Below, in pieces: positions 1 to 29,988 of a stretch of 64,000 bases of DNA. The stretch's first letter is position 1; each line of letters opens with the position of its first letter. The notes under the pieces are model-generated. The model did not search any database and was not told the DNA's origin. It was given only the letters and a program-made list of their open reading frames with translations. This stretch comes from an uncultured delta proteobacterium. Its GTDB lineage: Bacteria; Desulfobacterota; Desulfomonilia; UBA1062. Location of the stretch: contig CAWAUM010000001.1 in the NCBI GenBank assembly GCA_963785235.1, positions 224,001 through 288,000 on the forward strand, written 5' to 3'. Both the position numbers and the translations under genes were made by a program.

Positions 1-316
1 GGTTCAGCAGGTACTCGATGCCCTTTGCCAGCCTTGTTACGATCCTGGTCTTGCGCTTGTAAAGACCCTCGAGGGTCAAAGTGGCTGCCCCTGTCTCAAT
101 CCCGAACCGCCGGGCATTTTTCATGTGATCATAGAGGTTGATGCTTTCAATATAGGTCTTGGCAGGGATGCACCCCTTGTTCGTACAGGTGCCCCCGAAG
201 TTGGAGCCTTCGGCAATACCGACCCGCAGGCCCTTTTTTGCACCGAGCAGTGCGGCAGTATACCCGCCCGGCCCTGTGCCTATGACAAAAAGATCGTATG
301 GCTTCTGCGTGGCCAT
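1..316 (-). CDS. lpdA: Dihydrolipoamide dehydrogenase (N-terminal part, runs off window edge)
   Basis: Manual translation MATQKPYDLFVIGTGPGGYTAA...GGTCTNKGCIPAK: FAD-binding GxGPGG motif and redox-active CxxxxC of class I pyridine nucleotide-disulfide reductases; not in the ORF track. Confidence 0.85.
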   Translation of the reverse strand, partial: MATQKPYDLFVIGTGPGGYTAALLGAKKGLRVGIAEGSNFGGTCTNKGCIPAKTYIESINLYDHMKNARRFGIETGAATLTLEGLYKRKTRIVTRLAKGIEYLLN

Positions 317-318
317 TT

Positions 319-622
319 CTAAGTCTTTTTCCTCTTCTTATTGGGGATGGGGTAGAAGATATCTATGTAAGTATGCTTGAAGACCCCTAAGGCCTCCCGG
401 TGAATCATCAGCATCTCCCTCCGGGTGTAGTGCGAGTTTGTGAAGCTCGTTAAATTTCTCCACAAGGGAGTTGTATTCCTCAATGTTTTGTATTTGGCCC
501 ATAAGGGCATCCAGCTCTTTGAGCTGCTCAAGGACCGACTCGAGTTGATGTCCGGAGCTGCCCAGGGCCTTGGCCATCTCCTCCATGAGTTCCTGCTGTG
601 TCTTGTCAATGCTGTCTTTCAC
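319..622 (-). CDS. Small helical hypothetical protein (DUF6665-like), one frameshift near 430
   Basis: Joining two frames gives VKDSIDKTQQELMEEMAKALGSSG...REMLMIHREALGVFKH..YPIP; family assignment from memory. Confidence 0.5.
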
Positions 623-809
623 CACACAATGGGCTATAGCACACAAGGCCCATGGCGATAAAGGGCCTGACGCAACCACGGGCCACAAGGTGATAATTCG
701 AACAGGAATCCGTATTCTCCGGAACGATTCTATGGTAGGATACCAACATCTTAGCGGATAAAGAATCTCCTCCTGATATCCGATAAGCAGGCCTATACGG
801 AGGGTTATT

Positions 810-2126
810 GTGGATCTTGATATAATCTCGGAACAAGTCGACACCACGATACAGTCACTGGGGAAGGCTACCATCGAATCCCCGGTTAGGGGAAGCGCCA
901 TCTTTGTGGAAGACAGCGAGCGGGTCATCATAGATACCTCGCTGGACTTCTTCAACAGGTGCAGTCAGGGTGGTTCCCCTCCAACATCCTTTGAACTCTC
1001 CGGGCCCCGTAGAAAGATCTTCTTCGACCCTTCCAAGACCAAGTGCGGTATTGTAACGTGTGGAGGGCTCTGTCCGGGGATCAATGACGTTATCAGGGGC
1101 ATTGTCCTTGAATTGTACTATGTCTACAGCGTGGAGAATATCTACGGCATCACCTATGGTCTCCAGGGATTTATCCCCAAGTACAGGCATCCCCTCATCG
1201 AACTCACCCCTTCCTATGTCGAGCACATCCATGGAATAGGCGGCACCGTGCTCGGGTCTTCCCGTGGATCTGAAGATATCTCGGAGATCGTGGATGCCAT
1301 CGAGCGGCTGAATATGAATATCGTGTTCTTCATCGGTGGAGACGGCACATTGAAGGCATCTTCTGCAGTGGCCAGGGAGGCCTTGGCCAGGGGGTTCCGG
1401 TGCTCAATCATCGCGGTGCCCAAGACAATCGATAACGATATCCTCTTTGTTTCCAAGACCTTTGGCTTCGATACTGCGGTAGAAGAGGCAAGGAGGGTCA
1501 TCCAGAGCGCCCATGCAGAGGCCAAGGGGGCGCCTGACGGCGTCGGGCTCGTCAAGGTGATGGGACGGGACTCCGGATTTATTGCAGCCAATGCCGCCCT
1601 TGCTTCGAGGGATGTCAATTTCGTTCTCGTCCCTGAGGAGGACTTTGACCTTGAGGGTGAGAAAGGCTTTCTGGCCACACTCGAGAAAAGGGTCAGGTCG
1701 CGGGGTCATGCCGTGGTTGTTGTGGCTGAGGGAGCCGGGCAGAAGTTCTTCAAGGATCTCCCCGAAGAAAAGGATGCCTCCGGCAATGTAAGGAAGCACG
1801 ATATAGGCCTTTTCCTCAAGGACCGGATCGAGCGTTATTTCCAGGCACACGGTATGCCCACCAACATCAAGTACCTCGACCCGAGTTATTTGATCAGGAG
1901 TGTAGTGGCCAATGCCTCCGATTCGATCTTTTGCGGGTTCCTTGCCCAGATGGCGGTTCATGCAGGTATGAGCGGTAAAACCGATATGTTGATTGGTCTG
2001 TGGAATAATGTATATGTACATATACCCAATGCAATATGTATGAAGGGGAGGAAGAAGATCGATACGAGCGGGCCTTTGTGGATGAGCGTCAGGGAATCAA
2101 CCGGGCAGCCCGAAATGAAGAATTGA
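810..2126 (+). CDS. pfkA: ATP-dependent 6-phosphofructokinase
   Basis: TCGGLCPG, GGDGT, PKTIDND and MGRDSG motifs. Confidence 0.92.
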   Translation: MDLDIISEQVDTTIQSLGKATIESPVRGSAIFVEDSERVIIDTSLDFFNRCSQGGSPPTSFELSGPRRKIFFDPSKTKCGIVTCGGLCPGINDVIRGIVLELYYVYSVENIYGITYGLQGFIPKYRHPLIELTPSYVEHIHGIGGTVLGSSRGSEDISEIVDAIERLNMNIVFFIGGDGTLKASSAVAREALARGFRCSIIAVPKTIDNDILFVSKTFGFDTAVEEARRVIQSAHAEAKGAPDGVGLVKVMGRDSGFIAANAALASRDVNFVLVPEEDFDLEGEKGFLATLEKRVRSRGHAVVVVAEGAGQKFFKDLPEEKDASGNVRKHDIGLFLKDRIERYFQAHGMPTNIKYLDPSYLIRSVVANASDSIFCGFLAQMAVHAGMSGKTDMLIGLWNNVYVHIPNAICMKGRKKIDTSGPLWMSVRESTGQPEMKN

Positions 2127-2174
2127 GGCGTGACTGCTAAAAGGGCCAAAGTACGTTATCGAAAAGGAGTGACT

Positions 2175-2939
2175 ATGGATGACAAGAATTTATTAGAAGA
2201 TGATATTATTGATCTTACCGACCTTCTGGAGGAAGGCAGCCCGCCAAAGAAGCCCCAGCAATCCGACACACGAAAGAGGGTTGTGAATGAGCCTGATTCC
2301 TTTGACCTCGGCAAGGAGATATCTATGGATTATGATGTCTCCATTGAAGAGATCGAAAATGACACCACTGTGCTTCCCAATGATACCCCTTTGGATTTTG
2401 ACAAGAAGCCGGGCAAGCAATCCAAACTTGAAGAAGATATGAGTGACCTCCTGAAAGAGCCCCTGGGCAGCATCGAGTCTGAGATAGATCTTGCAATGAA
2501 GGACAAGTTCGAGGAAGTGAGCCTTACGGCAAAAGAAGAGGAAGTGCTCCTCAGTGAGACCCCGGCAGAAGAGATTCCCTCAATAAATAGTGAAGAGACT
2601 GATGCCCTCAATGAAGAATTCCCGGCCCCACCCGAAGAGCCTGTGAGGCTGCAGGAGGTTTTAATCCCTGCTGCGTCCACGCTGTCACCAATTCAGGAAC
2701 AACCCGGTGTCCAGGTGGAAATACCCAAGGTGAGCATCCCTGTTGATATGCCCACCGAGGCCATTTTGGATGCCGTTATCACTGAATTCAGGAAAGAAAT
2801 GCCTGCCCTCCTGGAAGGCATCGTAAGGCCGGTTGTGAAGGAACTGATCCAGGAGATTATCTCCTCAACCCGTGAAGTGATCCCCGGGATTGTGGAAAAG
2901 GTGATACGCGAAGAGATAGACAAGCTCAAGAAGCTCTGA
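2175..2939 (+). CDS. Acidic, Pro/Glu-rich protein with C-terminal amphipathic helix (PopZ/RomR-output-like)
   Basis: AGGAG RBS before ATG 2175; DIIDLTD motif, low-complexity acidic middle, C-terminal VIPGIVEKVIREEIDKLK; directly upstream of valS. Confidence 0.7.
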   Translation: MDDKNLLEDDIIDLTDLLEEGSPPKKPQQSDTRKRVVNEPDSFDLGKEISMDYDVSIEEIENDTTVLPNDTPLDFDKKPGKQSKLEEDMSDLLKEPLGSIESEIDLAMKDKFEEVSLTAKEEEVLLSETPAEEIPSINSEETDALNEEFPAPPEEPVRLQEVLIPAASTLSPIQEQPGVQVEIPKVSIPVDMPTEAILDAVITEFRKEMPALLEGIVRPVVKELIQEIISSTREVIPGIVEKVIREEIDKLKKL

Positions 2940-3020
2940 TCAGATAACCGCTTCGAGCCTTTTGCCTTTCCGCCTTGTTCATGCTATGAGGTGTGCCATA
3001 ACCCTCATCAGGAGTGCAAG

Positions 3021-5657
3021 ATGCTCGACAAAGATTACGACCCCAAGGATATTGAACAGAGATGGTACGACACCTGGCTTGAGAAGAAGTATTTCCATGC
3101 CAGTGAAGATGATGAGAAAAAACCCTGCTATACAATCGTAATCCCTCCCCCCAATGTCACCGGCGTGCTCCACATGGGGCATGCACTGAACAACACCCTT
3201 CAGGATATCATGATCCGTTACAAAAGGATGGATGGATATAATACCCTCTGGATGCCAGGCACCGACCATGCGGGCATAGCCACGCAGAACGTAGTGGAAA
3301 AGTATCTTGCAGAGAAGGGAACCTCCCGGCACGACCTGGGAAGGGATGAATTCATAGCAGAGGTCTGGAGGTGGCGGGAAAAGCACGGAGGACTGATCAT
3401 CAGCCAGCTGAAAAGGCTCGGCGCCTCCTGTGACTGGGACCGCATCAGGTTCACCATGGACGAGGGGCTCTCCAATGCGGTGAAGAAGGTCTTTGTAACA
3501 TTGTACGAAGAAGGCCTGATCTACCGGGGCGATTACATCGTAAACTGGTGCCCCAGGTGCCACAGCGCCCTGTCCGACCTGGAGGTGGAGCACGAGGAAG
3601 AAGACGGCCATCTCTGGCACATAAGGTATCCCTTGGCCGATGGATCGGGTGAGGTCGTGGTGGCTACCACCAGGCCCGAGACCATGCTGGGCGATACTGC
3701 CGTGGCGGTCAACCCTGAAGATGAGCGCTACGCAGCCATGATCGGCAAAGACCTTATCCTGCCTGTCATGAACCGCCGCATCCCCATTATTGCCGATTCC
3801 CTGGTGGACAAGGAGTTCGGCACCGGCGCAGTCAAGGTAACCCCTGCCCATGATCTCAACGACTATGAGATGAGCCTGCGGCATGGCCTGGAAGTTATCG
3901 TCATCATAGATGAGTCGGGATTCATGAATGCCAATGCCGGGCAGTATAACGGGCTTGACCGGTTCGAGTGCAGGAAACAACTCGAGAAGGACCTGGAGGA
4001 TCTTGGCTTCCTCGTGGACAAGACCGCCTACCGGGTGCCGGTCGGCGGGTGCTACCGGTGCAAGACCACCATCGAGCCGTATCTCTCCAAACAGTGGTTC
4101 GTCAAGACCAGGCCATTGGCGGATGAGGCCATCAAGGCCGTTCAAGACGGCCGGACGCGGATCATCCCCAAACAGTGGGAGAAGGTCTACTACGAGTGGA
4201 TGAACAACATCCGTGACTGGTGTATCTCGCGGCAGATCTGGTGGGGGCACCGGATCCCGGCATGGTACTGCGATGCATGCGAAGAGGTCATAGTAAGCGA
4301 GACAGAACCCAGGCAGTGCCCCACGTGTAAATCCGATGCGCTCAGGCAGGAGACCGATGTGCTCGATACCTGGTTCTCGTCCGGGTTGTGGCCCTTTTCC
4401 ACCATGGGCTGGCCGGAGCCCACAGCCGCATTGAAGAAGTTTTATCCCACCGATGTCCTCATCACCGGTTTTGACATCATCTTCTTCTGGGTGGCCAGGA
4501 TGATGATGCTGGGCCTGAAGTTCATGGGTGATGTGCCCTTTAAGGATGTCTACCTCCATGCCCTGGTGCGTGACGAGCAGGGCCAGAAGATGAGCAAGTC
4601 CAAGGGCAACATGGTGGACCCCATCATAGAGATGGACAAGTATGGGGCCGATGCCTTCCGTTTTGCCCTTACCGCCTTTGCCGCCATGGGCAGGGATGTG
4701 CGAGTCAGCGACAAGCGCATCCAGGGATACCGCTTTTTCATCAACAAGATCTGGAACGCCGGCAAGTTCGTTCTGGCGAATATCAAAGGGTTCGAACCCG
4801 AAGAGGTCACCCTTGATCCGGCAAAACTCGGGCTTGCGGAAAAATGGATACTGACCGAGCTGAACAAAACCATCCGGGATGCACGGCTCGCCCTTGATGA
4901 ATACCGCTACAACGACGCAGCGGACATCCTCTATCAGTTCACCTGGCATACCTACTGCGACTGGTACATCGAGCTGTCCAAGTCCATGCTGAACGCCGAA
5001 GGGTCTCAGTACACCAGGTGGGTGCTGCACTATGTGCTGAAGTCCATCCTCGAACTCCTGCACCCCATCATCCCCTTTGTCACCGAAGAGATCTGGCAGT
5101 GTCTGCCGGGCAGGGTGGGTGAGTCCATAGTAATCGCCTCCTATCCCAAGGCCAGGCCGGAGCTGGACTTTGTGGACGATGCCGAGCTCATGAGCTATAT
5201 CATCGAGGTTATCTCGGGTGTGCGCAGCATCAGGGGAGAGACGGGCATATCTCCTGCCGTGGTGCTCGATGTGGCCATCAGGGTGCCTGACGCAAAGCTG
5301 CAATCCATGCTGGGCGCCAACAGCATCCATATCAAGGACCTTGCAAGGGTTTCTCAGGTGAGGTTTATAGCCAATGAATCCGAGCGCCCGAAGAAGTGCG
5401 CCCTTTCCGTAAGGAAGGGACTCGAGGTCTATGTGCCCCTTGAAGGTATTATCGACATCGACAAAGAGACTGACCGGTTGAACAAGCAGATGGGCAAGGT
5501 GAACAAGGAGCTCGCAGAGAAGCTCAAGAAGCTGTCGAACCCCAACTTTGTGGAAAAGGCGAAGAAGGAAGTGGTGGAAGAGCAGCTCAAGATAAAGCAA
5601 GACCTTGAGTTCGAACTCATAAGCCTCAAGAAGGCCCATGCGCTGCTTCAAGGGTGA
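3021..5657 (+). CDS. valS: Valine--tRNA ligase
   Basis: PPPNVTG.LHMGH (HIGH), DWCISRQ, KMSKS, C-terminal coiled coil; AGGAG RBS before 3021. Confidence 0.98.
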   Translation: MLDKDYDPKDIEQRWYDTWLEKKYFHASEDDEKKPCYTIVIPPPNVTGVLHMGHALNNTLQDIMIRYKRMDGYNTLWMPGTDHAGIATQNVVEKYLAEKGTSRHDLGRDEFIAEVWRWREKHGGLIISQLKRLGASCDWDRIRFTMDEGLSNAVKKVFVTLYEEGLIYRGDYIVNWCPRCHSALSDLEVEHEEEDGHLWHIRYPLADGSGEVVVATTRPETMLGDTAVAVNPEDERYAAMIGKDLILPVMNRRIPIIADSLVDKEFGTGAVKVTPAHDLNDYEMSLRHGLEVIVIIDESGFMNANAGQYNGLDRFECRKQLEKDLEDLGFLVDKTAYRVPVGGCYRCKTTIEPYLSKQWFVKTRPLADEAIKAVQDGRTRIIPKQWEKVYYEWMNNIRDWCISRQIWWGHRIPAWYCDACEEVIVSETEPRQCPTCKSDALRQETDVLDTWFSSGLWPFSTMGWPEPTAALKKFYPTDVLITGFDIIFFWVARMMMLGLKFMGDVPFKDVYLHALVRDEQGQKMSKSKGNMVDPIIEMDKYGADAFRFALTAFAAMGRDVRVSDKRIQGYRFFINKIWNAGKFVLANIKGFEPEEVTLDPAKLGLAEKWILTELNKTIRDARLALDEYRYNDAADILYQFTWHTYCDWYIELSKSMLNAEGSQYTRWVLHYVLKSILELLHPIIPFVTEEIWQCLPGRVGESIVIASYPKARPELDFVDDAELMSYIIEVISGVRSIRGETGISPAVVLDVAIRVPDAKLQSMLGANSIHIKDLARVSQVRFIANESERPKKCALSVRKGLEVYVPLEGIIDIDKETDRLNKQMGKVNKELAEKLKKLSNPNFVEKAKKEVVEEQLKIKQDLEFELISLKKAHALLQG

Positions 5658-6377
5658 TGGAACCACTGAAATCAAAAAAGATTATCACGGAGTTCATAGA
5701 GCTTAACCAGGTGGACTCCACCAATCAATATGCCCTGGACAAAAGCAGGCCGGGGCTTCTTGTCACTGCCCGCGCCCAGAATGCAGGCCGGGGAAGGCGG
5801 GGAAGGCCGTGGTTCTCGCCTGCCGGTGAGAATGTGTACATGACGCTCACCGTCGCGCCGCCTGAAGAACGCTACCCCATTATTGCAGGTGTTGCCGTAC
5901 GGGCCGCCATTGCCGGCCTTGTTCCGGATGAGGCAGTGGCCGTCAAGTGGCCCAATGACATTGTCATATCAGGCAGGAAGGTGTGCGGGATCCTCTGTGA
6001 GACCAGGGGGCCCATCACCGCCATCGGCATCGGCGTCAATGTGAACCAGCAGGCATGGCCAAAAGAGCTTGAGCACAGGGCTTGTTCATTGAAGCAGTAT
6101 TCACATGATGGATTCAGTGTCAAATAAGGTGATTGAGTTGGTATCGGAGCACCTCTGCGCCTGGATTGATGTGTTCCGCAGCCAGGGCTTCGCTCCGGTC
6201 AGGGAGGAGTTCCTCCGCCATGGCCTGTTGCAAGGTTATGAGGTCTTTCATGAAAAGGGCCAAAGATGCACCATTGTCGACCTCACCATGGATGGACATC
6301 TCATTATCAGGGAAGGCGAGACGGAAATGGAACTTATTCATGAGCCTGTGTCTCTGGGATGGGATAAGGACTTGTAA
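5654..6377 (+). CDS. birA: Biotin--[acetyl-CoA-carboxylase] ligase, frameshifted near 6122
   Basis: DSTN, QNAGRGRRGRPW, KWPND, KVCGIL, GIGVNV motifs; C-terminal part continues in ORF 6105..6377. Confidence 0.9.
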
Positions 6378-6390
6378 GACACGAACACTT

Positions 6391-6642
6391 TTATCGCGTT
6401 TTTGAAAGCAACTCCCCTTCGATGTACCGGTGGATTATGCCGGAAATGAGTGTCTGATAGGGGATACCCATTTTCATCGCTTTCTTTTGGATGCCCTGAT
6501 AATCATGTTCATAGAGACGTATGGTAATTGGTTTATCTTTTACAAAAGTCTTTCGTGCCGTTGCCTTGATTGCCTCGATCTCCTTTTTTGCCCAGGATAG
6601 TTCCCTTGGTCGGGATGATCCTATACTGCGTGGGACTTTCAC
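6391..6642 (-). CDS. CopG/RHH-family (BrnA-like) antitoxin, no intact toxin seen
   Basis: KDKPITIRL...KAMKMGIPYQTLISGIIHRY resembles CopG-family antitoxins. Confidence 0.7.
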   Translation of the reverse strand: MKVPRSIGSSRPRELSWAKKEIEAIKATARKTFVKDKPITIRLYEHDYQGIQKKAMKMGIPYQTLISGIIHRYIEGELLSKTR

Positions 6643-7323
6643 TTTTTAATCCGCCTTGCCGTTCTCCCGGCGCACCAGGGATCTATGATCCTGCTTGAGT
6701 GATAGTATTCTATAACTGTCCATACTAACTTGTAAAAGAAACAATGATGGGTATAATGGGAACATAAGGTAACTGAAATGAAAGTAGTCATCTTTTGCTT
6801 TAATACGCAAGACGAGTTGAGCATGTAAATCTTTGTATTATATTCTTATTATAGTTTTGTAATTGGAGTACCGGGGTTATCAGAGCATCCGAGTTCAAAG
6901 AGGATCACTGAAGAGACCACCCAAAAGCCTGATCTGGAAGCTTTCGCACAGATCAGCAAAGAGAAATGGCGGTCTCCCTATGATATCCCTGGAGAGTATC
7001 ATTCAGAAAGATGATCCCGAAAAAACCAGCCAATGAGCTGGCTGCGGCCCTATCATACGGATAGGGCTTACGGTCCCTCTCATGACTAACACATGGAGCA
7101 GAGATGGGGATAATCAAAGGGGACATTTTTAACGAGTCTTGACAATGCCTCATAATCAGTATTGATATTTCACAAGACAGATTTACTATTACTGATGATG
7201 TACTTTAGTCAAATGATCGTTTCAGTGCAGCTCTTTTTGGGGAAAGACCAAAGCTTCATAATAACCCTTTGCGTACTTCATGAAGTGAAAGAGTAAGTGT
7301 ATTCAATAAGGGGGATAAATCTC

Positions 7324-7725
7324 ATGAAGAATGAAACCCGGAAGAAAATCTATTTTTGGGGTTCCTTATGGAATTTTGGTTTCTCATTCAATGGTCTGGT
7401 GATGCCAAGTCTCACCATGTGGCTCATCTCCGGATCAAAGAATATAATTACCGGGGTTCTGCCCCGGACCTTCTTTGCATTCTTCTGGTCAGCAGTGGGC
7501 GTCTTTGGGTGGGGTTACTACCTCGTATCACGTGACCCGGAAAAGAATCAGGGTGTCATCTGGATGGGATGCTTTGCAAAAGTTGGCATCTTTCTCACTT
7601 TTGCCCGTCTCTATCTACGCAAGTACATAACGCTCTTCGGCTTTCTGTGTGCCCTGGGAGACTTGATATGGACGATCCTCTTCCTTGCTGCACTGCGTGG
7701 AGAGAAACAGGAAGAGAAAGCCTGA
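7324..7725 (+). CDS. Small integral membrane protein (about 4 TM), unknown function
   Basis: Four hydrophobic segments; GGGGA RBS before ATG 7324. Confidence 0.65.
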   Translation: MKNETRKKIYFWGSLWNFGFSFNGLVMPSLTMWLISGSKNIITGVLPRTFFAFFWSAVGVFGWGYYLVSRDPEKNQGVIWMGCFAKVGIFLTFARLYLRKYITLFGFLCALGDLIWTILFLAALRGEKQEEKA

Positions 7726-7791
7726 AAAATGTGTCCTGAGTAAGCATAAAGAGCTGGATGACTGAGCTTTAACGTCATTTCTGATTTCCTC

Positions 7792-8091
7792 ATGGAATCT
7801 ATACTTAAACCTATGGCTCTTAGCCAGTATCGTTTGGCCAAGGAAATTGGCGTACCCGCTCAGCGTATCAGTGAGATTGTTGCTGGCAAGCGTTCGATTA
7901 CAGCTGATACCGATTTGCGGTTGTGCCGGTTCTTTGGTCTATCCAACGGCTATTGGTTACGCGCTCAGGCTGCCCACGATACGGAGGTTGCAGAGCGCTC
8001 TCTAGGCCCATCGCTAAAGAAGATCAAACCTTGGTCTGCATATGCGGACCAACAAGGGGCTCCAGCTAATGTTCGTACCTCGCACGGCTGA
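7792..8091 (+). pseudogene. higA: HigA-family HTH antitoxin, N-terminally degraded, no higB
   Basis: LKPMALSQYRLAKEIGVPAQRISEIVAGKRSITADTDLRLCRFFG..GYWLRAQ is typical HigA; the usual PGE..LEEF start is missing. Confidence 0.8.
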
Positions 8092-8105
8092 GCTTTTTGT
8101 TACTG
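8047..8105 (+). other. Solo integron attC-like site (59-base element)
   Basis: GACCAAC (R'') .. GCTCCAGC (L'') .. GCTGAGC (L') .. GTTACTG (R'); 59 bp with an extrahelical base in L''; at the 3' end of higA. Confidence 0.65.
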
Positions 8106-8361
8106 CACCGAAAGTGAGGCGTAACGATCAGAATACACTTATCCCTGTCAGCCAGGAAGTGTCTGAACCTGACCACGCTCGTTCAACTTCAAAAGTATGC
8201 TTGAGTAGGATGATCCCATTATAATACCTGGCACTATTTCACCGCGCCAATAAGCCTCTAAAGAAGATAAAGGCAATATTTTCTCTCGCGCATGAAATAT
8301 TTTCCGACGAGAGCCTGGTAACGACCTGTCCATAAATAGGAAGCGCCCGCACCTTCTCTTG

Positions 8362-8377
8362 TGGCACAATGGTTGCT
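8362..8377 (+). promoter_or_regulatory. Sigma-54 (-24/-12) promoter in front of zorA
   Basis: TGGCAC-AATGG-TTGCT, exact match to TGGCAC-N5-TTGCW. Confidence 0.65.
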
Positions 8378-8389
8378 CATATAAAGGGT

Positions 8390-10396
8390 ATGATGATAGA
8401 CTTTGTCCGCCATTTTCTGATCATAGCAATAATATCCCTGACACTTATTGCCATAGCATTGAGTTTTTTCACTCAATTCGTCCTGCCGGCCATGCGCCTC
8501 AGGAAGGACCTTCAGGCGACCATCGAGCGGGTCAGGCGTTTAAAGGCTGCCTCCAAGGGCAAGATAACCGACCTTGAGGAGATCTCGCAGGAGATGCTGA
8601 CAAGTGATAGGTTCAGCCATCCCTGGCAGGAGTATCGCGAAACACTCCATGAACAACAGTGCGCTGATCCTTCCGGCAAAGGCAAGTCGGTGCGGTGGCG
8701 TTCCACAACCCTGGCTGAAACCTTCTTCTCCGAGCAGGCCCTGGTAGATACCCCATTAAAGACCTCTTTCTACAAGCATCTGCCCGGGATACTCACCGGG
8801 CTCGGCATCATCGGCACGTTCTCGGGCCTCATCGTGGGCCTGATCAGGTTCGAGGTGTCCGGCGATGCGGACAAGGTGCGTGCGAGCCTGAACGGCCTTA
8901 TCCAGAGCGTGGGGTATTCCTTCGTTGTGTCCGCTACGGCCATCACGCTCGCCATGATCTTCATCTGGGTGGAAAAATCACTCGTTACTGCATGCTACCG
9001 GCATGTGGAGAAGTTGTGCCAGCTCATAGACAGCCTCTTCGATACCGGTGCCGGGGAGGAGTATCTGGCGCGCCTGGTGGTTGCCGCCGAGACTTCGGCA
9101 GAGCATTCGCTCACCATAAAGGATTCCCTGGTAACCGACCTCAGGCAGGTCTTCACCGAGCTCGCCACCCAGCAGATGAAGGCCTCGGCCCTGCTCAGCA
9201 AGAATCTCTCCGTAACCATCGCACAAGGTATAACCAGGAGCATAGAGGAACCCATGGGGCGGATCTCCATGGCCGTCCAGAAGGCAAGCGCGAACCAGGG
9301 CGAGGCGGTGAACAAGGTCCTCTCCGATGTCCTGGCAGGCTTTTCTTCGCAGATGCAGGGCATGTTCGGCAATCAGTTCCATGAAATGGGCGACATCCTG
9401 AAAGGAACCGCAGAGGCAATCCAGGGGGCTGCCCTGCAGGTGAGCAGGTGCGTTGAAACCATGCAGGCACGGGAAAAGGAACGGAACAGGCCATGGCCGA
9501 ACGCCTGAACAGCGCGGTCAACTCGCTGGATGAACGTCAGAAGATCATGGACAGGTCCATGAGTGTCTTTGTGGAAAAGACCTCTGAAGTGAACACCTCC
9601 CAGACAGATGCAACAAGGAATATGCAGTCCATCCTTACCGACATCGGGGAACGGATGGCGGGCATTGTTACCCAGATCGAGACACAATCACGCCACACGG
9701 CACAGGAGTATGAAGCGCGCCAGGGCAGACTGGCAGAGCAGAGTGTCTCCATAATGGGCGAGATTAACGAACCAGCTCAGGACCTTAGCGGGTGAGATGA
9801 GGCAGGCGGGTGAGATTACCCGTGACAGCGCTACAAACCTGGCATACATCACCAAGGAATCCACAGGGCTGTTCAATGCAGGTGCACATGCCCTGCAGGT
9901 TTCTTTCAAAGACTTTTCAAAGGCGTCGGGCATGGTGAGCAGTACCATGCAGGCCATAGAGAAGGCATCCGCTGAGATCCAGGGCGCCTCATCCAACCTC
10001 GCCCAGGCAACGAACGGGGTAAAGGATATGATGGACGAGCACGCCCGCACGAGCGATATCTTTGCAACCATTGTCTCAGAGCTCAGGTCCACCATTGAGA
10101 ATGCCCGGCACGAGGCGTCCATGACCACCCAGATCGTTGAGAGGATACAGAAGGCAACCGAGCAGCTCGGCATAGCCCAGAACAAGGCGGAGGAATATCT
10201 CCATGGGTTGACTGATGTGCTGGCCCAGGCGCATGCCGAGTTTGCCGGGAATATCGAACTGACGCTCCGGAAGAGCAATACCCAGTTCCATGAAGAGCTC
10301 TCCAGGGCCGTGTCGCTGGTATCAGGGGCAATACAGGATTTCGGGGATGTCCTCGACTCGGCATCGGACAAGGGTGATAAGCAATGCTGGGTCTAA
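8390..10396 (+). CDS. zorA: Zorya ZorA (MotA-like membrane domain plus long helical tail), frameshifts near 9490 and 9790
   Basis: FYKHLPGILTGLGIIGTFSGLIVGL and further TM helices followed by a long amphipathic helical tail across ORFs 8369..9508, 9493..9795 and 9797..10396; start codon uncertain. Confidence 0.88.
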
Positions 10397-11088
10397 GGCT
10401 TCCCTGCCGCCATAAAACACAGGACGATGCGGAAAAGCCCTTCTGGATATCGTTTTCCGATATGATGACGGCGCTCATGGTGCTTTTCCTGGTGGTCATG
10501 ACCGTGACGCTCCTTGCGGTCACCCATACCGTTTCACAGGCCGAGCGCATGAAGACGGCAAAGGGATGCGGAGATCAGCAAGCTCATGGCGAAGATACGG
10601 GAGGCTTCACGGGATTTCCCCGGCATCACCCTTAAGGGCAATACCATCGACTTCGGCGACCAGGCCCGCTTCGAAACCGACAGCAACCGCCTCACCCGTG
10701 AGCAGGCGCAGCATTTGAGGGCCTTTGTGCCCAGTGTATTGAAGATAGCCCGCGACCCTTTGGGTAAAAAATGGCTTAAGCGGGTGGTGGTGGAAGGGTA
10801 TGCCGACCAGCGCGGGACGTACCTGCATAACCTTGACCTGAGCATGCAGCGTTCCGAAAGGGTGCTGTGCGCCCTGCTGGCCATGCCGGAACCTCAAGAG
10901 AAATCCCTGAACCACCGGATGACCGTCTGCTTATCCAGCAGCTTTTCCTGGTGGGCGGGGCATCGTTCAATTCTTTGAAAAAAACCCTGGAGGAGAGCAG
11001 GCGGATAGAGCTGAAACTGGAGTTCCTGGAGATGGGAGAAACCAGGCCCATAACGCCCCCCATACAACTGGCTGCAGACCAGTACTGA
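10384..11088 (+). CDS. zorB: Zorya ZorB (MotB/OmpA-like), frameshifts near 10560 and 10910
   Basis: AEKPFWISFSDMMTALMVLFLVVM, GKKWLKRVVVEGYAD..G.YLHNLDLSMQRSERVLCALL, LFLVGGASFN...ESRRIEL closely follow type I ZorB. Confidence 0.92.
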
Positions 11089-11102
11089 GAGCTGGATTAA
11101 CC

Positions 11103-12516
11103 ATGAACGCGCTCGACCTGTTACGCTTCAAGCTGCATCAGTCGTTTTCTTCTGTGTTTCATGATGCCACGTGGGGACAGCCCGAACTCATGACCAAGGT
11201 CCTTCAAGAAGTGTGCGCTGCATTTGATACCTCTGCAGATACCACCTCCAGAAGGTCCATCGGCTCAGACCCTGCTGTCTTTTCGAGCATCCGCCAAGCT
11301 GCCCACATTTTTAGACCTGAAATATGCGTGCATAGGCATTTCCCAGCAGGCTGGAGACGACGGCTGGCGGTTGCTGGAAGACAGGGACCTCTTTGCAGTC
11401 GTACTGGATGGTGTCAGCTCCCAGGCGCATAATCCCAGGCGCTTCAGGAAATGCTACCAGGGGCTTCTGAGCGGGTATTTCGACTACAATATATTCGATG
11501 CTGCCGTACCGGAGCAGGGCAGGAAGAACTGGCTGAGCCTGCGCTCTTTTCTCCGGGATCATCTGGGCGTAATTCAGCGGGCCGTGCCCGTGCTCAGCTG
11601 GGTCAAGGTTATCAGCAGCCACATGAACCTGCTTGACGATAACCCGTGCGAACGCTATGGCGCTGCACTGGCACAGGGCGACTACGCGGAACTGAAGTCG
11701 GCCTTCAAGGGCCTCCTCATCCCTAAGAATTCGTGGATCTGGGAGGTCATAGTCCTGGCGCGCATCAGGGCCATATGCAGTTTCACGGATGATGAATTCA
11801 AGAAACAGCTTGCAGTGTCTCTGGCCATGGCTAGCCATAACTCCGGCATTATACTCTCTGAGATACTGAAGAAGAAGTGTCTCGCGCAGCTCATAGGCCG
11901 TTATGCACGGTGTGCAGCAAGGCCGGAAAACGCCTTGCTCTGTGACTGCGCCATATCAATACTGGGAAATCCATGGGTCAACCGGGCGGCATGGGATGCA
12001 CATGTACACGATGATACCGCGAGAACCATGATCGAATCCTGGCTGAAACGTAGATTGATCACTGATTATTTCCACCTGCTCGGCCGGGACAGGTCGGTGG
12101 ATATGCAACGCCTTAAGTACTGGCTGAATTTCATCCCCAAGATAGAAGACATGTGGTTCGCGCTGGGCCCCTATGCATTGAACCATCCCGGGGCGGTTTT
12201 CAAGGAATTCCGGGAGATAGCCAAAGACCGCATCCTGGCCCTTGAAAGTCCGGGCTGTGATGAAGACAACGCACTCATCATGAAGATTGACGACTATGTC
12301 TTTGTGGAGTTCGGATCAACAGAGAATTCCTGCCTGGTCTTCAAGAGCAACGACCTGCCTTTTGATCTGGACAAGAAATGGATCTATATCGGCTCGAAAG
12401 CAGGTTCCGGCCTGCCGCACAGGCTTAATATGAAGCATTCGCTGCGGAAAAACAGCACCCTGAAATTTCCAGTTGCTGACCCATCATCAAGGGACGCCAT
12501 TAAAAAATCAGCTTAA
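11103..12516 (+). CDS. zorC: Zorya ZorC (EH-signature domain protein), frameshift near 11265
   Basis: Follows zorB; R..YWLNF...IEDMWFALG, NALIMKIDDYVFVEFG..ENSC and a downstream His fit the EH-signature domain. Confidence 0.8.
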
Positions 12517-12748
12517 AAACCGGATTTTGCGGGTAAGAAGAGTAAAGACTTTTTTCCGTTCAAATCCATCACCAAAGCAGCCTTCGTGAAATGCTAATTT
12601 TAGCGGTCCTTCCAGGCTGCTTTGGTGATGGATTTGAACGGACCTATTTAAAGAACAGTTTCATGCTCACTATGAGTGCTCTGCTAATGGCCACCTCCAG
12701 ATGCATGAAGCCCTTGTGGTTACATCCAAACGCAAAAACCGGGGTTAA
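12513..12748. repeat. MITE/REP-like element family A, copy 1
   Basis: TTAA ends with imperfect terminal IRs (ttaaaaaccggattttgcg / cgcaaaaaccggggttaa); perfect 29-bp internal IR 12555-12583 / 12614-12642; homologous to 26126-26341. Confidence 0.75.
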
Positions 12749-12755
12749 GGCCCCG

Positions 12756-13490
12756 CTATGTTTTTGTCCGGCTGAGGCTTCTCTGGATGCGGGACTGTAT
12801 CTTCTGCTGGAACAGTCTCCTTATAATATATCCACGGAACAGGTTGGCAGCCCGGGTGAGATTCGTGGTTATCTCAGCGTTATCCTTTGCGGACATGCCC
12901 CGGATGATCCTTTTGCGAAACGCCACCTCATGGTCGGTGATCTCATGGCCGAGACGGACATAGAACTCGAAATCATTTGGGTCGATGCCGAATTGATAGA
13001 CCTGCCGGATAGCTTCCCTGGCTACGGTAACGTCTTCAGGGTTGTATAGGCAGTTCTCCTTTTCCCTCAGGTAAGGCATAATAAGGCCGATCCGCTCCAC
13101 CTCATCGAGCTGCTCGGGCTTCAAACCGGTCAGGCTTAAGAACTCCGCCCGGTCTACCAAGTTCATCTCCCCATCGGCTATGGGTGCGAACACTGCATCC
13201 TCAACCGCCGAAGACTCTTCAAAGGTAAAACCGTCGTCCATGCGGCGCAGGATATTTTTGATCATTGCCAAAGGGTAGTACTTTTTTTCCTGCAGATGCT
13301 GGATTGCGTAGAGTTTCTTGATGCAGATCTCGTTGTAGTAGGCCATCTTTTTATTGACCTTTTCCGGGGCAGGAAGGAGGCCTTCTTTCACGTAGTAACG
13401 GATCGTCGAGACAGGGACCCCGCTTTTTCTGGAGAGTTCTCCTATTTTAAGGCCCATGTCTTTATCGTCCTTTTCAGCTTCTGCGCTCAA
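12756..13490 (-). CDS. MerR-family transcriptional regulator
   Basis: LKIGELSRKSGVPVSTIRYYVKEGLL HTH plus a second MerR-like repeat. Confidence 0.9.
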   Translation of the reverse strand: MSAEAEKDDKDMGLKIGELSRKSGVPVSTIRYYVKEGLLPAPEKVNKKMAYYNEICIKKLYAIQHLQEKKYYPLAMIKNILRRMDDGFTFEESSAVEDAVFAPIADGEMNLVDRAEFLSLTGLKPEQLDEVERIGLIMPYLREKENCLYNPEDVTVAREAIRQVYQFGIDPNDFEFYVRLGHEITDHEVAFRKRIIRGMSAKDNAEITTNLTRAANLFRGYIIRRLFQQKIQSRIQRSLSRTKT

Positions 13491-14591: not shown

Positions 14592-14680
14592 TAAAAAAAT
14601 ATCAAGAGTGAATTGTTCTCACTGTGAAAAAGAGGTTGTCCTTGAGATACCCCTGCACAGCAGCAAAAAAGGCAAAGAAG

Positions 14681-14751
14681 AAAATTGGCCCGTTCAAAAC
14701 ATGGATCTTGGTGAAACCAAGATCCATGTTTTGAACGGGTAAGGTTTTTTC
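14681..14751. repeat. Palindromic REP-like element family B, copy 1
   Basis: 23-bp perfect IR 14689-14711 / 14717-14739; reverse-complement homolog at 18261-18331. Confidence 0.8.
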
Positions 14752-15013
14752 TCCCCAGGTATATAGTTTTCTGGAAGTTATTAGGAGAAGTTTTCTTCAG
14801 GAATTCCTTCTTTGCGAAAAGGGCACCCTAATGATAGAGGTTGGTAGACACTTTATCCAAGGAGGCATATGCATGTCAGGAGCCATCCTTGTAATAAGGA
14901 GAATATCCCCCTTGAATGGGCATTGTATGAATCGCACGCCATCCAGGCCAAGGCCTTTGAATGTAAATCCAGGCTTTATGCCGACAGGTATATCTCCTGC
15001 GGGGACTGAACAC

Positions 15014-18260: not shown

Positions 18261-18331
18261 GAAAAAACCTTACCTGTTCAAATCATGAATCTCGGCTTCA
18301 CCGAGATTCATGATTTGAACAGGCCAATTTT
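18261..18331. repeat. Palindromic REP-like element family B, copy 2
   Basis: 23-bp perfect IR 18273-18295 / 18301-18323 with the same flanks as copy 1, inverted. Confidence 0.8.
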
Positions 18332-18371
18332 TTTACCCTGCTTAATCGCAAAATCTAGATTAAAATCCCCC

Positions 18372-18421
18372 TTGCCCTTCCTGCCAGTAAGGTATATATT
18401 GTCAGCTGGCAATACCACCAG
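18372..18421 (+). promoter_or_regulatory. Sigma-70 promoter and FadR/GntR-type operator of the GRE operon
   Basis: TTGCCC-17 nt-TATATT followed by TGGCAATACCA (18407-18417), similar to the TGGTnnnACCA FadR-subfamily box. Confidence 0.55.
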
Positions 18422-18441
18422 CCACATACAATGGAGACTCC

Positions 18442-19182
18442 ATGAAAGATATCCTGAAGCCGCTTCATTCAGAGAGCCTGGTAGAAGTGTTCATATCGCG
18501 CTTCGAAAATCTCATCCTCACCGGCAAGATCGCCATCGGCCGGAAGTTGCCCTCGGAGCGCGAGCTGGCCCTGCAGTTGGGTGTGAGCAGGCCCGTGGTG
18601 CACGAGGGGCTTGTGGATCTGGCTGCCAAGGGCCTGGTCACCATGAAGCCGCGGGTGGGGACAATGGTGAATGACTACAGGAAAGAGGGATCGCTCAGTA
18701 TCCTGAACTCCATCATCAACTACCAGCAGGGCTCGCTTGACGAGGACCTTCTGGAAAGCCTGCTGGCCACGAGGCTCCTGGTGGAGACCGAGAACACCCG
18801 GCTCGCTGCGGCCAATCGCACCGAAGAACACGTAAAAGAGTTTCGAGTGATCCTTGAGGCGGAAGAAGCCATTGGCCTAAAAGATGTGAAAAAGATCACT
18901 GCGCTTGACTTCAGCTTCCACCATACCATCGGCATGGCCTCGGGCAATGTCATTTACCCCATGCTCATCAACTCGTTCAAGCCCGTGTACATGAATTTCA
19001 CCGGCATATTTTTTTCAGAACCCGCCAATGTAGCAGAAACGATTCAATTCCACCGCAGGCTCGTGGAAGCCATAACGGACAAGAACGCCGTGCAGGCGGT
19101 AAGCATCATGATCGAGACACTGCACCACGGCGAAATGCATGTGCGCACAATCCTCAACCAGCCCAAAAGGAGAAGGCCATGA
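18442..19182 (+). CDS. GntR/FadR-family transcriptional regulator
   Basis: KLPSERELALQLGVSRPVVHE HTH; FCD domain D.SFH...SGN. Confidence 0.93.
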   Translation: MKDILKPLHSESLVEVFISRFENLILTGKIAIGRKLPSERELALQLGVSRPVVHEGLVDLAAKGLVTMKPRVGTMVNDYRKEGSLSILNSIINYQQGSLDEDLLESLLATRLLVETENTRLAAANRTEEHVKEFRVILEAEEAIGLKDVKKITALDFSFHHTIGMASGNVIYPMLINSFKPVYMNFTGIFFSEPANVAETIQFHRRLVEAITDKNAVQAVSIMIETLHHGEMHVRTILNQPKRRRP

Positions 19183-21695
19183 GTACCTCGGCAGCACTCA
19201 AAAGCGTTCACAAGATCAAGGAACCGAAAAATCTGTCCAAGCGCATAACCTGGCTGCGGGATTATTACTACAAGGGCGTGGATCGACCGTGGAACAACGA
19301 GTTCACTGCCTGGACCACAGGCACGCCCTGGGATGTGCAGTTCGATGAGATGACGTTTTACATCGTGCCCGAGACCTACCCCTTCATGCAGACCTTCCGC
19401 TCCTGCATGCAGCAGGCGGCCAGGCCTGTGAAGCTGCACCCCGACTTCTGGAAGTGGAGCCTGGTTGAGCGCAAGGCCTGGTTCGTCAGGGAGGTGATGG
19501 TGAACTATGTGCCCGCCGAGATCCTGCCGGGCGACCTCATTGCGGGGGGCCGCTTCAACCTCCAGACGTCCAAGTGCTGGACAAAACAGGAGGCAAAGCT
19601 TCGCGACAGGCTCATCTACGGGAAGAAAGGCGCGCGTGCATCCATGAAGTGGTTCCACGACCACGGCTACGGCAACTCGGGCGCCACGAGCGGCCACCTC
19701 ATCCCGGGGTATGAACGGGCCTTGAAGATCGGATGGAGGGGCATATACGAAGACCTGGATAATCGCTACAGCATGCTGCCCCAAAAGGACAAGAAGGGCA
19801 AGAAAGGCGCCCAGCTGAGCGCCATGATGACGGCCGCCACCACGGCGCGCGACCTGGCAGCCAAATATGCCGCGCTGTGCGAGCGTATGGCCCTCGATGA
19901 GAAAGAGGCAGTGAGGCAGGGCGAGTTGCAGAGAATGGCAGCCATCCTCAAGCGTGTCCCCTGGGAGCCGGCGGTCACCTTCTGGGAGGCCGTGCAGGCC
20001 CTGTGGATCACACACATGCTCGTCATGAGCGATGAGAACTATCCCGGGCCCGGAGTTTCCTTCGGCCGTATAGACCAGTATCTGCTGCCCTACTGGCAGC
20101 GGTCCATTGCAGGCGGCATGGAGAGGGAACTGGGCAAGGAGATCATGAAATGCCTCTGGGTGCATGCCAACACGGTGTACGACGCCATGATCCGCGTGGG
20201 TGACAATGGCATCACCGCGGGTTACGGCCAGCTCATAACGCTCTCGGGCGTGGGTGAAAACGGCAATGATATGACCAATGACCTGACGTATGCCATGCTG
20301 GAGGTCATCGACGAGATGACCCCCATGCTGGAGCCCAAACCCAACGTTCGCCTGCACCGGGGCACGCCGGAGACACTGCTGGACAAGGTGGTGGACATGA
20401 TCTCGGTAAGCCAGGGCGCGCCTTTCCTGCTGAACTTCGACGAACGGTCCATGGCAGGGATGCTCCGCGAGGCGAAAAAGGCCGGGGTGGAACACCTCAT
20501 CAACGAGACCAACGTGCACGACTACGCGCCCGTGGGCTGCCTGGAGAACACCATGCAGGGCAATGACCGCTCCGGCACGGTGGACAACAACCTGAACCTC
20601 TTAAAGGCCGTGGAGCTCTCCCTGAACGACGGGAAGGACTTCTTTGATTTTACCGACCCCATAACGGGGAAGAAGGAGAAGGTGAAACAGGCAGGCCCGA
20701 AGACCGGCGACGCTAAAGCATTTGCAACCTGGGACACATTCTGGAAGGCCTATGCCGAGCAGACGCGGTTCATCGTGCAAAGGTGTGCAGCGCTCTATGA
20801 GCTCTCCGAATCCATCCGGGCCCGGTTCTGCCCCACGCCGTACCTCTCCTGCCTGGTGAAGGGGTGTGCGGAAAAGGGGCTCGACGTCACCCAGGGGGGC
20901 GCTGAGCTGGGCTTCACAACCCTTGAGGCCGTGACCTTCGCCACCACGGTGGACTCGCTGCTGGCCATCAAGGACCTGGTGTTCGACAAAAAGGAATGCA
21001 CCATGGCCGAGATGATCGAAGCCCTCATGGCCAACTGGGATGGCAATGAGAAGCTGCAGGCCAAGGCCAGGTTCAAGGCCCCGAAATACGGGCGCGACGA
21101 CGATGAGGCCGATGCCATGGCTGCAAAGGTTATGGAGCTGTGGTGCGAGGAGACCTGGAAGTACAGAACCATCTCCACAAACCGCCGGTTCCGGCCTGGT
21201 ATGCTGAGCTGGAACTACTGGGTGGGCGACGGCTTCATCCTGCCGGCAAGCCCGGACGGCAGGCCCAAGGGGAGGTTCCTTTCAAATGCCATCTGCCCGG
21301 TGAGCGGGGCGGACATCAACGGCCCCACCGCCAATGTGAACTCCGTGGGCAAGGCCATGGGAGGAAAAGACCTGCAAGGCCCGGGGGACTATAAGGGATA
21401 TTACAACTGCCTGCCCAACGGCGCGAGCCACACCATCACCATCAACCCCTCCCTGCTGAAGAACCCGGAGCACCGCTCAAAGTTCAAGTCATTCTTGAGG
21501 GGATACGTGGAAAACGGGGGCAGCGCGCTGCAGATCAATATCCTTGATGCGGATATGCTTACAGACGCCCAGAAGAGGCCCGAAGACTACCGGTCGCTCC
21601 TGGTGAGGATAACAGGGTACAACGCATACTTCACGAGCATCGGAAGGGAGCTGCAGGATGAGGTCATCGCCCGCCTCAGCCATGAGTCGCTGTAA
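19179..21695 (+). CDS. Glycyl radical enzyme 1 (PFL superfamily, substrate unknown)
   Basis: SFGRIDQYL, Cys loop PVGCLEN, Gly loop LLVRITGYN. Confidence 0.92.
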   Translation: MSTSAALKSVHKIKEPKNLSKRITWLRDYYYKGVDRPWNNEFTAWTTGTPWDVQFDEMTFYIVPETYPFMQTFRSCMQQAARPVKLHPDFWKWSLVERKAWFVREVMVNYVPAEILPGDLIAGGRFNLQTSKCWTKQEAKLRDRLIYGKKGARASMKWFHDHGYGNSGATSGHLIPGYERALKIGWRGIYEDLDNRYSMLPQKDKKGKKGAQLSAMMTAATTARDLAAKYAALCERMALDEKEAVRQGELQRMAAILKRVPWEPAVTFWEAVQALWITHMLVMSDENYPGPGVSFGRIDQYLLPYWQRSIAGGMERELGKEIMKCLWVHANTVYDAMIRVGDNGITAGYGQLITLSGVGENGNDMTNDLTYAMLEVIDEMTPMLEPKPNVRLHRGTPETLLDKVVDMISVSQGAPFLLNFDERSMAGMLREAKKAGVEHLINETNVHDYAPVGCLENTMQGNDRSGTVDNNLNLLKAVELSLNDGKDFFDFTDPITGKKEKVKQAGPKTGDAKAFATWDTFWKAYAEQTRFIVQRCAALYELSESIRARFCPTPYLSCLVKGCAEKGLDVTQGGAELGFTTLEAVTFATTVDSLLAIKDLVFDKKECTMAEMIEALMANWDGNEKLQAKARFKAPKYGRDDDEADAMAAKVMELWCEETWKYRTISTNRRFRPGMLSWNYWVGDGFILPASPDGRPKGRFLSNAICPVSGADINGPTANVNSVGKAMGGKDLQGPGDYKGYYNCLPNGASHTITINPSLLKNPEHRSKFKSFLRGYVENGGSALQINILDADMLTDAQKRPEDYRSLLVRITGYNAYFTSIGRELQDEVIARLSHESL

Positions 21696-21799
21696 ATGAA
21701 TATTTTCCTAGGGGGCTGTCAGCATCAGTTGCATGGGGTGGTGTTGGCAGTCCCTGCCCCCATGGCGCCGGGGTGAGGGGCCCATACAAGGGAAAAGGC

Positions 21800-22804: not shown

Positions 22805-22810
22805 GGGGGG
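22769..22810. repeat. REP-like CCCTCTCCC...GGGAGAGGG...GGTGAGGG element overlapping the activase 3' end
   Basis: Hairpin ccctctccc-ctggc-gggagaggg; related hairpin at 40561-40592 and a partial copy near 21750-21785. Confidence 0.6.
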
Positions 22811-22873
22811 AGTGCATATTGACGGCAGTGTCGTCTCCCTGGTTCCGGATATGAGTAGTGATGGAGGTAAAAT

Positions 22874-23722: not shown

Positions 23723-23737
23723 AGAGGAGAAATCAGT

Positions 23738-26117: not shown

Positions 26118-26125
26118 GGGCTGTT

Positions 26126-26341
26126 TTAACCCGGAGTGTGAGTTTAAGAAGAGTAAAAAAACTGATCCGTTAAAAAACTCACTCTTGCAGCCTTTGTGGA
26201 GCGATAATTTTATCGGTCCTTAAGGCTGCAAGAGTGAGTTTTTTAACGGACCTATTCAAAAAACAATACCATGCTCACTATGAGTTTTATGCTTAAGTCC
26301 ACCTGTAGCGCACAGGGTATTTATGGGTTTATTCCAAAGGC
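26126..26341. repeat. MITE/REP-like element family A, copy 2 (right end decayed)
   Basis: Shares taagaagagtaaa, aacggacctatt, catgctcactatgagt and ccacct with copy 1; perfect 29-bp IR 26166-26194 / 26222-26250. Confidence 0.75.
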
Positions 26342-26355
26342 CCGATTTGCCTCCT

Positions 26356-27372: not shown

Positions 27373-27492
27373 CTCCCCATAAAAATATCGGTTGCCTATT
27401 GCCGATGATGGTTACACGCCGGAGAAAAACTGTCAACGTTTGCATGACAATTCGCAATATTTCGGATACAACATATGCATTGAGGAAAGGGC

Positions 27493-28892: not shown

Positions 28893-29008
28893 GCCTTCTA
28901 TAGTACGCCAAACCAGGCGATGGTCAATATGCACCTAAAGGGTATTGAGGTATAACCTTCATCAGTCACCCCTTGCATGGCAGGCAATCTTGTTTTATAT
29001 TCAACGAG

Positions 29009-29759: not shown

Positions 29760-29787
29760 CAGCTTGACCTGATATCAATATTTATAA

Positions 29788-29953: not shown

Positions 29954-29988
29954 TCAGATGAGAACATGCGTTCCCTTATCTGCCTGAA

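Follow-up and report, generated by a model that had tools for sequence, protein, structure and literature searches.

The closest described systems are the type I Zorya systems of Escherichia coli and Serratia. According to work on these two systems (PMC11946911; Mariano et al., PMC11890865), the four type I genes and the C-terminal domain of ZorC are indispensable, and the output is degradation of DNA by ZorD where the phage enters. Removal of any Zorya gene ends defence in the E. coli system, and each component is likewise required in the Serratia system. In E. coli ZorC, deletion of the C-terminal globular domain ends DNA binding and defence, and the substitutions E400A and H443A each end defence. 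Here we analyse a 64,000-nucleotide stretch of DNA from an uncultured delta proteobacterium of the Desulfomonilia (the window; GenBank assembly GCA_963785235.1, contig CAWAUM010000001.1, positions 224,001–288,000), which carries zorA, zorB, and a short zorC (zorC') without zorD. The three proteins belong to type I families, and the loci of this kind form a single clade that is sister to one canonical zorABCD system, with intact genes under selection in the relatives and no linked fourth gene. The best explanation, which we rate at even chances, is an undescribed three-gene type I lineage, zorA-zorB-zorC', retained as a working module in Desulfomonilia-type bacteria.

A type I zorA-zorB-zorC locus without zorD

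The plus strand at positions 8369–12516 of the window holds eight collinear open reading frame (ORF) pieces and no single long ORF (Table 1). PADLOC model searches of the locus return type I ZorA, ZorB, and ZorC only, with the effectors unmatched. Genomes are labelled G below (G000 being the genome of the window), compared loci L, and public metagenome runs X.

The three pieces of ZorA match the ZorA1 model (PDLC00598) with E values of 3.1e-133, 3.1e-16, and 6.2e-48. They cover profile positions 9–363, 361–466, and 459–660, collinear and together spanning 9–660 of 663. The start of zorA was placed by alignment to the ZorA N-terminus of G002, in which the orthologous gene is intact (668 residues, 90% DNA identity to the window zorA). 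This is the only ZorA locus in G000, and its product is a long-tailed MotA/ExbB-like protein, as in type I. The three ZorB pieces match the ZorB1 model (PDLC00611) with E values of 1.5e-25, 1.1e-44, and 7.4e-16 at profile positions 1–60, 58–180, and 180–228, overall 1–228 of 240. The Pfam domains MotB_plug and OmpA are present and the Asp of FWISFSD is kept, again as in type I. The zorB orthologues of G002 and G011 are intact and encode 233 residues. For both ZorA and ZorB, the best scores come from the type I models.

The main piece of ZorC (440 residues) matches the ZorC1 model (PDLC00613) with an E value of 2.5e-122 over profile positions 52–420 of 570, whereas another ZorC model (PDLC00626) gives no match. 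The N-terminal piece has no model match but aligns to the N-termini of intact relatives. ZorC scores 105.6 bits against Pfam EH_Signature (PF15611; cut-off 27.5), this being the only EH-signature locus in G000; the Glu of the signature is present, with a His 43 positions further on. Truncation of zorC by insertion of the adjacent repeat was considered, as the PADLOC match ends at profile position 420 of 570, and was rejected: the intact zorC of G002 ends identically without a repeat, indicating that the end at 12516 is native.

The locus thus consists of zorA, zorB, and zorC family members of type I Zorya. A preliminary description of this DNA, made from the sequence alone, had proposed a zorA-zorB-zorC module with an EH-signature ZorC and a ZorB that keeps the Asp of WISFSD and its peptidoglycan-binding motifs; the type I model matches to all three genes, the EH_Signature score, the FWISFSD reading, and the OmpA match bear out each of these points.

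Table 1. Positions in the window of the zor genes, their private indels, and the features that follow them
Feature	Position	Strand	Description
zorA	8390–10396	+	MotA-like membrane motor subunit with long cytoplasmic tail; three frames: 8369–9508, 9457–9795, 9755–10396
Private 1-nt deletion, zorA	9468	+	First frameshift; extra base present in contigs of X1 and X5
Private 1-nt insertion, zorA	9764	+	Second frameshift; base missing from X2 and X5 contigs; X1 without coverage
zorB	10384–11088	+	MotB-like stator subunit with plug, FWISFSD Asp, and OmpA-type peptidoglycan-binding domain; three frames: 10381–10635, 10553–10978, 10837–11088
Private 1-nt insertion, zorB	10560	+	Not in X1, X2, X4, and X5 contigs
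Private 2-nt insertion, zorB	10916–10920	+	Scrambled bases around; not in X1, X2, and X5 contigs
zorC' (short ZorC)	11103–12516	+	EH-signature core; two frames: 11103–11432 (N-terminal piece) and 11194–12516 (main piece)
Private 1-nt insertion, zorC	11264	+	Not in X1, X2, and X5 contigs
MITE-like intergenic repeat	12517–12739		Directly 3' of the zorC stop; perfect 29-nt arms 12555–12583 and 12614–12642
Terminator-like G+C-rich hairpin	12740–12755		T-runs on both strands; between zorC and MerR; consensus match only
MerR gene	12756–13490	-	Convergent to zorC; Pfam

A clade without zorD and with a short ZorC

In trees of ZorA, ZorB, and ZorC, the zorD-less rows form a single branch (SH-like approximate likelihood ratio test support 100, 96, and 99, respectively). 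The canonical locus of G008 is sister to this branch for ZorA and ZorB, whereas its ZorC falls with the rest of the canonical rows. The pairwise ratio of non-synonymous to synonymous substitution rates (dN/dS) in the clade is 0.08–0.25 for all three genes in the pairs with unsaturated dS, and the lineage-specific ratio of the corresponding proportions (pN/pS) is 0.09–0.27. The zorD-less loci are therefore one clade kept under purifying selection. A minimal three-gene variant, one of the options raised in the preliminary description, gains support from the single branch in three trees, the intact relatives, and these dN/dS values, and the ZorB phylogeny that it had proposed as a check recovers a zorD-less branch under purifying selection.

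The ZorC' form of this clade is set apart by length. A search of 5.8 billion proteins with G002 ZorC gives 26 best clusters that are 47–90% identical to the query and 310–503 residues long, 24 of them between 438 and 478 residues; the 310-residue cluster covers just 66% of the query. The clusters from rank 27 onward are mostly 544–617 residues long, a sharp length split. Among 120 ZorC rows, the 25 short clusters of at least 420 residues and L031 form an exclusive clade with support 100.

The difference lies at the C-terminus, as seen in an alignment of the short forms with canonical ZorC and the E. coli protein EcZorC (PDB 8R68; phmmer E 1.8e-28). The short ZorC keeps the core through the signature Glu (EcZorC Glu400) as well as the equivalents of Arg335 and Trp339, with the equivalent of Asp332 variable within the clade. 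After the Glu, canonical ZorC has an invariant His at +38 to +43 (all 27 clusters as well as G008, L028, and L029), followed by a helix with the motif W-E-x-x-F/L-D, then a linker, and finally a ~60-residue globular domain that ends G-x-G-W-W-K-E. ZorC' is without the Trp-bearing helix, linker, and globular domain: the 26 nearest clusters and the G002 orthologue all have just 0–9 residues where canonical ZorC has the ~60 of its C-terminal domain. The window ZorC ends like its short relatives in the alignment and so lacks the C-terminal globular domain of type I, a loss that goes beyond what the preliminary description had observed. The His is found at +39 to +43 in 10 of the 25 short clusters, including the window, G002, G004, G007, and G013, and is lost in the other 15, including G009 and L031. 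A clade-wide loss of the His, suggested by an alignment that put Lys or Arg in its column, was rejected, since counting residues from the Glu finds the His in those 10 clusters.

In an AlphaFold2 model of G002 ZorC, the core is confident (mean predicted local distance difference test score 82.6) and the chain is disordered from residue 431. The sole significant match of the model in the PDB (Foldseek) is EcZorC (8R68, E 2e-11), so that ZorC' is predicted to retain the core fold. In the most divergent clade members, ZorC' has a Pro-, Ser-, and Leu-rich insert of ~50 residues behind the N-terminal helices (L031 at ~10280–10440; G119:C34:31349–31509).

No zorD is adjacent to the window operon, where type I loci have it after zorC, and two ZorD models (PDLC00630 and PDLC00632) find no match in G000. 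When the ZorD protein of L029 is used as a query against ten genomes with short ZorC, six (G000, G005, G007, G011, G013, and G119) give no match and four give partial matches, which cover the helicase region (G002 and G009) or a short stretch (G003 and G004); in the positive control G008, the same query matches over residues 13–1257. A ZorD encoded in trans, as the preliminary description had suggested, is thus not found in G000 by either the models or the protein. No zorD lies 3' of zorC in G002, G003, G004, G007, G009, G013, and L031, and by tblastn it is missing from all 11 clade metagenome loci that extend at least 1.37 kb past zorC, loci that probably stem in part from the same populations as the metagenome-assembled genomes (MAGs) and hence are not independent of them. 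The controls L028, L029, L032, L094, and G008 have ZorD after zorC, directly after it in L094. The ZorE model PDLC00644, the one model used, has no match in G000, leaving type II without its partner, and neither do ZorF (PDLC00653, DUF3348) and ZorG (PDLC00657, DUF2894), two models that matched no control genome either. The earlier statement that the operon has no ZorD, ZorE, ZorF, or ZorG partner accordingly stands, beside the operon and elsewhere in the genome, with the ZorF and ZorG models lacking a positive control.

These data contradict the explanation that an ordinary type I Zorya has here been deprived of its zorD by a local deletion or by misassembly near 12.5 kb, and we regard it as highly improbable. 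A mobile repeat does lie exactly 3' of the zorC stop. However, the zorC end at that point is native and the same in G002, which has no repeat there; the G011 contigs C463 and C480 share the zorC tail–repeat–MerR junction with the window; and every clade member is without zorD and has a short ZorC. The preliminary description had named zorD right after zorC in close relatives as a finding that would refute it. None of the seven genus-mates with contig past zorC does, nor do L031 and the 11 metagenome loci; the genus-mate G008 has a canonical zorABCD but sits in the sister lineage.

The zorABC' module occurs in 9 of the 15 genomes of the genus (G000, G002, G003, G004, G005, G007, G009, G011, and G013) and in 10 of the 52 genomes of the family, the tenth being G119 from a second genus; it is found in none of the 70 genomes of the other family of the class. 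The zor genes of the relatives are intact wherever the contigs permit, and the proteins of the clade are 638–686 (ZorA), 233–241 (ZorB), and 458–478 (ZorC) residues long. The canonical order is present in the more distant phylum relatives L028, L029, and L032 and in G008, with ZorC of ~560 and ZorD of 1252–1262 residues.

A conserved fourth gene was sought by comparing all ORFs within 6 kb of 13 loci against each other; none was found, and sharing is confined to close relatives. Seven distinct contexts follow zorC across the clade, with no common neighbour: the repeat with MerR and NMO genes (window, G011, and L082), a DJ-1/PfpI gene (G002), convergent DUF1003 and PKD genes (G003, G004, and related contigs), a 396-residue ORF of unknown function with an MBL-fold gene (G007), a convergent Lon gene on the opposite strand (G009), a gene for a convergent membrane protein (G013), and a convergent hybrid kinase gene (L031). 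As candidate downstream partners, Lon, the hybrid kinase, DUF1003/PKD, DJ-1/PfpI, and the 396-residue ORF with the MBL-fold gene were rejected, each being confined to its own lineage. In G008, zorABCD (L043, G008:C20:26000–42000) is followed by same-strand ORFs of 819 and 430 residues, which may be further defence genes.

Frameshifts and surroundings of the window copy

Indels were called in a three-way alignment of the window, G002, and G011, the last two being 90% and 96% identical to the window over the locus, respectively. The zor genes carry five indels private to the window, which break zorA, zorB, and zorC (Table 1) and at which the preliminary description had just hinted with the words "polished" and "repaired"; the same genes are intact in G002 and G011. 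Four public runs, each from a different study, gave Logan contigs ~95–97% identical to the window locus, and these show the unshifted reading at all five sites wherever they cover them.

Private indels also occur outside the zor genes. In 1–6520, they lie at 320, ~430, ~2140–2156, and 6122, the last a +1 that splits the biotin-ligase gene, a single ORF of 240 residues in G002. In 18300–27900, a +1 at 25474 cuts a PFL-like enzyme ahead of its glycyl-radical domain. In 28600–46400, compared with G011 only, there is a +1 at 29233 in a Hydrolase_4 gene, a +1 at 29805, and a +1 at 31190 that cuts CheA within HATPase_c. These indels are of the same type as those in the zor genes, mostly +1 insertions with scrambled adjacent bases. 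Along the branch leading to the window, the zor genes have accumulated 28 synonymous and 10 non-synonymous substitutions (pN/pS 0.09–0.12), and no in-frame stop remains in them once the indel columns are dropped. Because same-type indels break housekeeping genes in mid-domain and selection shows no sign of having relaxed, we consider it quite likely that the five zor frameshifts are consensus errors of the 13-contig assembly. The zor operon is probably intact in the source organism. In view of the scattered single-base indels, broken genes in this assembly should not be called pseudogenes without reads.

The alternative that the window copy of the same lineage is a real, very recent pseudogene, with the operon dead in this strain, is rather unlikely. 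All three zor genes are broken, and private indels are about 5-fold denser here (5 in 4.15 kb) than in the compared flanks (7–8 in 33.9 kb; binomial P 0.006–0.009). In addition, loss of defence genes is frequent, and none of the sequencing runs searched for the source reads contains more than 34% of the words of the locus; no RNA dataset was listed as containing the locus. On the other hand, five neutral indels predict far more than the 10 non-synonymous changes observed, the branch has its low pN/pS and no in-frame stop, housekeeping genes of the same assembly are split by the same type of indel, and the nearest relative, G011, is intact. A decaying type I system, another option of the preliminary description, finds no support for the clade, with its intact and selected relatives, and little for the window copy, as its frameshifts resemble assembly errors. 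Whether that copy is dead is a separate matter from the role of the lineage.

The operon is preceded by ValRS, the biotin-ligase gene, and an AT-rich stretch that includes an HTH_3 gene. It is followed by the repeat, the convergent MerR and NMO genes, and then UbiA and HD_5 genes. The neighbours match no Zorya effector model of PADLOC, ZorE included, and a search of them found no helicase or nuclease domain; PADLOC matches just two of them, MerR with mad1 (E 1.9e-10) and the HTH_3 gene with PDC-M69A (E 2.6e-4). The preliminary description was therefore right in placing no helicase or nuclease on either flank, and the repeat arms and the Pfam MerR match agree with the end that it gave to the operon, at a repeat and a convergent MerR gene.

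The repeat resembles a miniature inverted-repeat transposable element (MITE). It is ~220 nt long with a perfect central hairpin, whose stem varies among copies yet is fully compensated. A second copy lies at 26128–26304 of the window (extent also given as 26121–26338), and related hairpins lie at 14676–14752 and 18262–18334. The repeat is multicopy in G000 and G011 and missing 3' of zorC in G002; the junction of zorC tail, repeat, and MerR is the same in G011 contigs C463 and C480 as in the window. An Rfam scan of 6000–27000 gives no family at gathering score.

The AT-rich stretch (6400–8300; G+C 0.42–0.47 versus ~0.55 around) lies between the biotin-ligase gene and zorA and contains, besides the HTH_3 gene, an ORF of 142 residues without family match. 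It is replaced by an amine-oxidase-like gene and others in G011 and by a 9.3-kb insert in G002, and looks like the edge of a variable island. Elsewhere in the window, PFL-like glycyl-radical enzyme paralogues lie at 19179–21695 and 23738–25579 with 2 kb between them, the second without a Gly_radical domain owing to the +1 indel at 25474. Three large paralogous ORFs of 1063, 1412, and 690 residues occupy the minus strand at 43065–54060; they have common 300-nt blocks that are 62–81% identical and an 11-copy 34-nt motif every ~375–400 nt, and are probably a tandem family of multi-domain proteins.

Possible output and comparison with known Zorya systems

In the proposed mechanism, a single event in an ancestor would have removed both zorD and the C-terminal third of ZorC. 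By analogy with the E. coli system, ZorA5B2 would be a peptidoglycan-anchored, ion-driven motor that senses envelope damage caused by phage and signals through the ZorA tail, and ZorC' would still dock on that tail via its conserved core. The output would not be DNA degradation mediated by ZorD, because ZorC' is without the DNA-binding domain needed in EcZorC and ZorD is missing. It would most likely be provided by a genetically unlinked partner or come from the motor's own action, through ion leak or abortive infection with ZorC' as the gate. Since E. coli cannot dispense with either ZorD or the C-terminal domain of ZorC, a different output is expected, and the lineage probably works in another way than the E. 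coli system does.

For the lineage as a working defence module with changed output, we find the arguments on the two sides in balance. Several points weigh against it. In both tested type I systems, ZorABC minus ZorD gives no protection. Purifying selection indicates that the proteins are in use and says nothing on phage defence. All clade members are MAGs or metagenome contigs, and the completeness of the MAGs (71% for G005, 76% for G013, and 88% for G011) limits "no ZorD in trans" to "not found". The effector search comprised one model each for ZorE, ZorF, and ZorG. As for the window copy, the excess of private frameshifts in the zor genes over the flanks makes real decay possible, and at site 9468 the unshifted reading in run X5 comes from a single contig (depth 3.9 of 7.1).

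A motor repurposed for a non-defence role, such as envelope sensing or signalling, with ZorC' as its cytoplasmic partner, is unlikely. Such a role would agree with the loss of both DNA-directed parts and the conservation of the remainder, with flanks that are housekeeping rather than defence genes in most lineages, and with window neighbours that match no Zorya effector and give only the MerR–mad1 and the weak HTH_3 matches in PADLOC. However, the spread of the module is patchy and defence-like (9/15 in the genus, 10/52 in the family, 0/70 in the second family), its downstream contexts are of seven different kinds, it adjoins an AT-rich stretch and a mobile repeat in the window, and its sister lineage is a canonical defence system.

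More tentatively, and with some doubt, the defence reading may be extended to ZorAB and a bare ZorC core being a self-sufficient immune module whose output needs no dedicated nuclease, acting either through a ZorC'-gated ion leak of the motor or abortive infection or through recruitment of an unlinked host enzyme. If this is true, the ZorA tail would have its universal partner in the ZorC core, and not in the DNA-binding end of ZorC, with ZorD as an add-on. Whatever its output, a natural lineage appears to have shed the two DNA-directed parts at once, while selection has retained the remaining three proteins over a long period of divergence. The lineage would thereby offer a ready-made separation of functions, for the ZorC core alone and for signalling by the ZorAB motor beyond a linked nuclease.

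The nearest canonical relative, G008, encodes ZorA, ZorB, ZorC, and ZorD of 666, 238, 561, and 1252 residues. Its proteins are 53% (ZorA), 71% (ZorB), and 49% (ZorC) identical to those of G002, with ZorA of similar length; it differs in having retained ZorD and the full-length ZorC. Type II (ZorE) and type III (ZorF and ZorG) systems are alike in combining a ZorAB motor with exchangeable soluble partners (PMC8565338, PMC11890865), a precedent for swapping of the output module. They differ from the window lineage in those partners, for which G000 has no match (one model each, those for ZorF and ZorG without positive control).

A full-text search of the literature, with the supplementary tables of the Zorya papers outside its scope, found no description of a ZorD-less Zorya lineage. 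This would be explained by the published censuses, which retained canonical gene orders only (Hu et al. 2024, PMC11946911). The system of E. coli NCTC9026 (EcZorI, PMC11946911) is alike in its long-tailed ZorA, its ZorB with the Asp and a peptidoglycan-binding domain, and the order A-B-C, and its ZorC shares the EH-signature core by both sequence and fold. EcZorI differs in having ZorD, and its ZorC has 560 residues compared with ~470 here, the short form being without the Trp458 helix, the linker, and the C-terminal globular domain; the equivalents of Asp332 and His443 vary in the short-ZorC clade. Each part missing from the window lineage is essential in E. coli. The zorA-zorB-zorC' lineage is probably a so far undescribed variant of type I Zorya.

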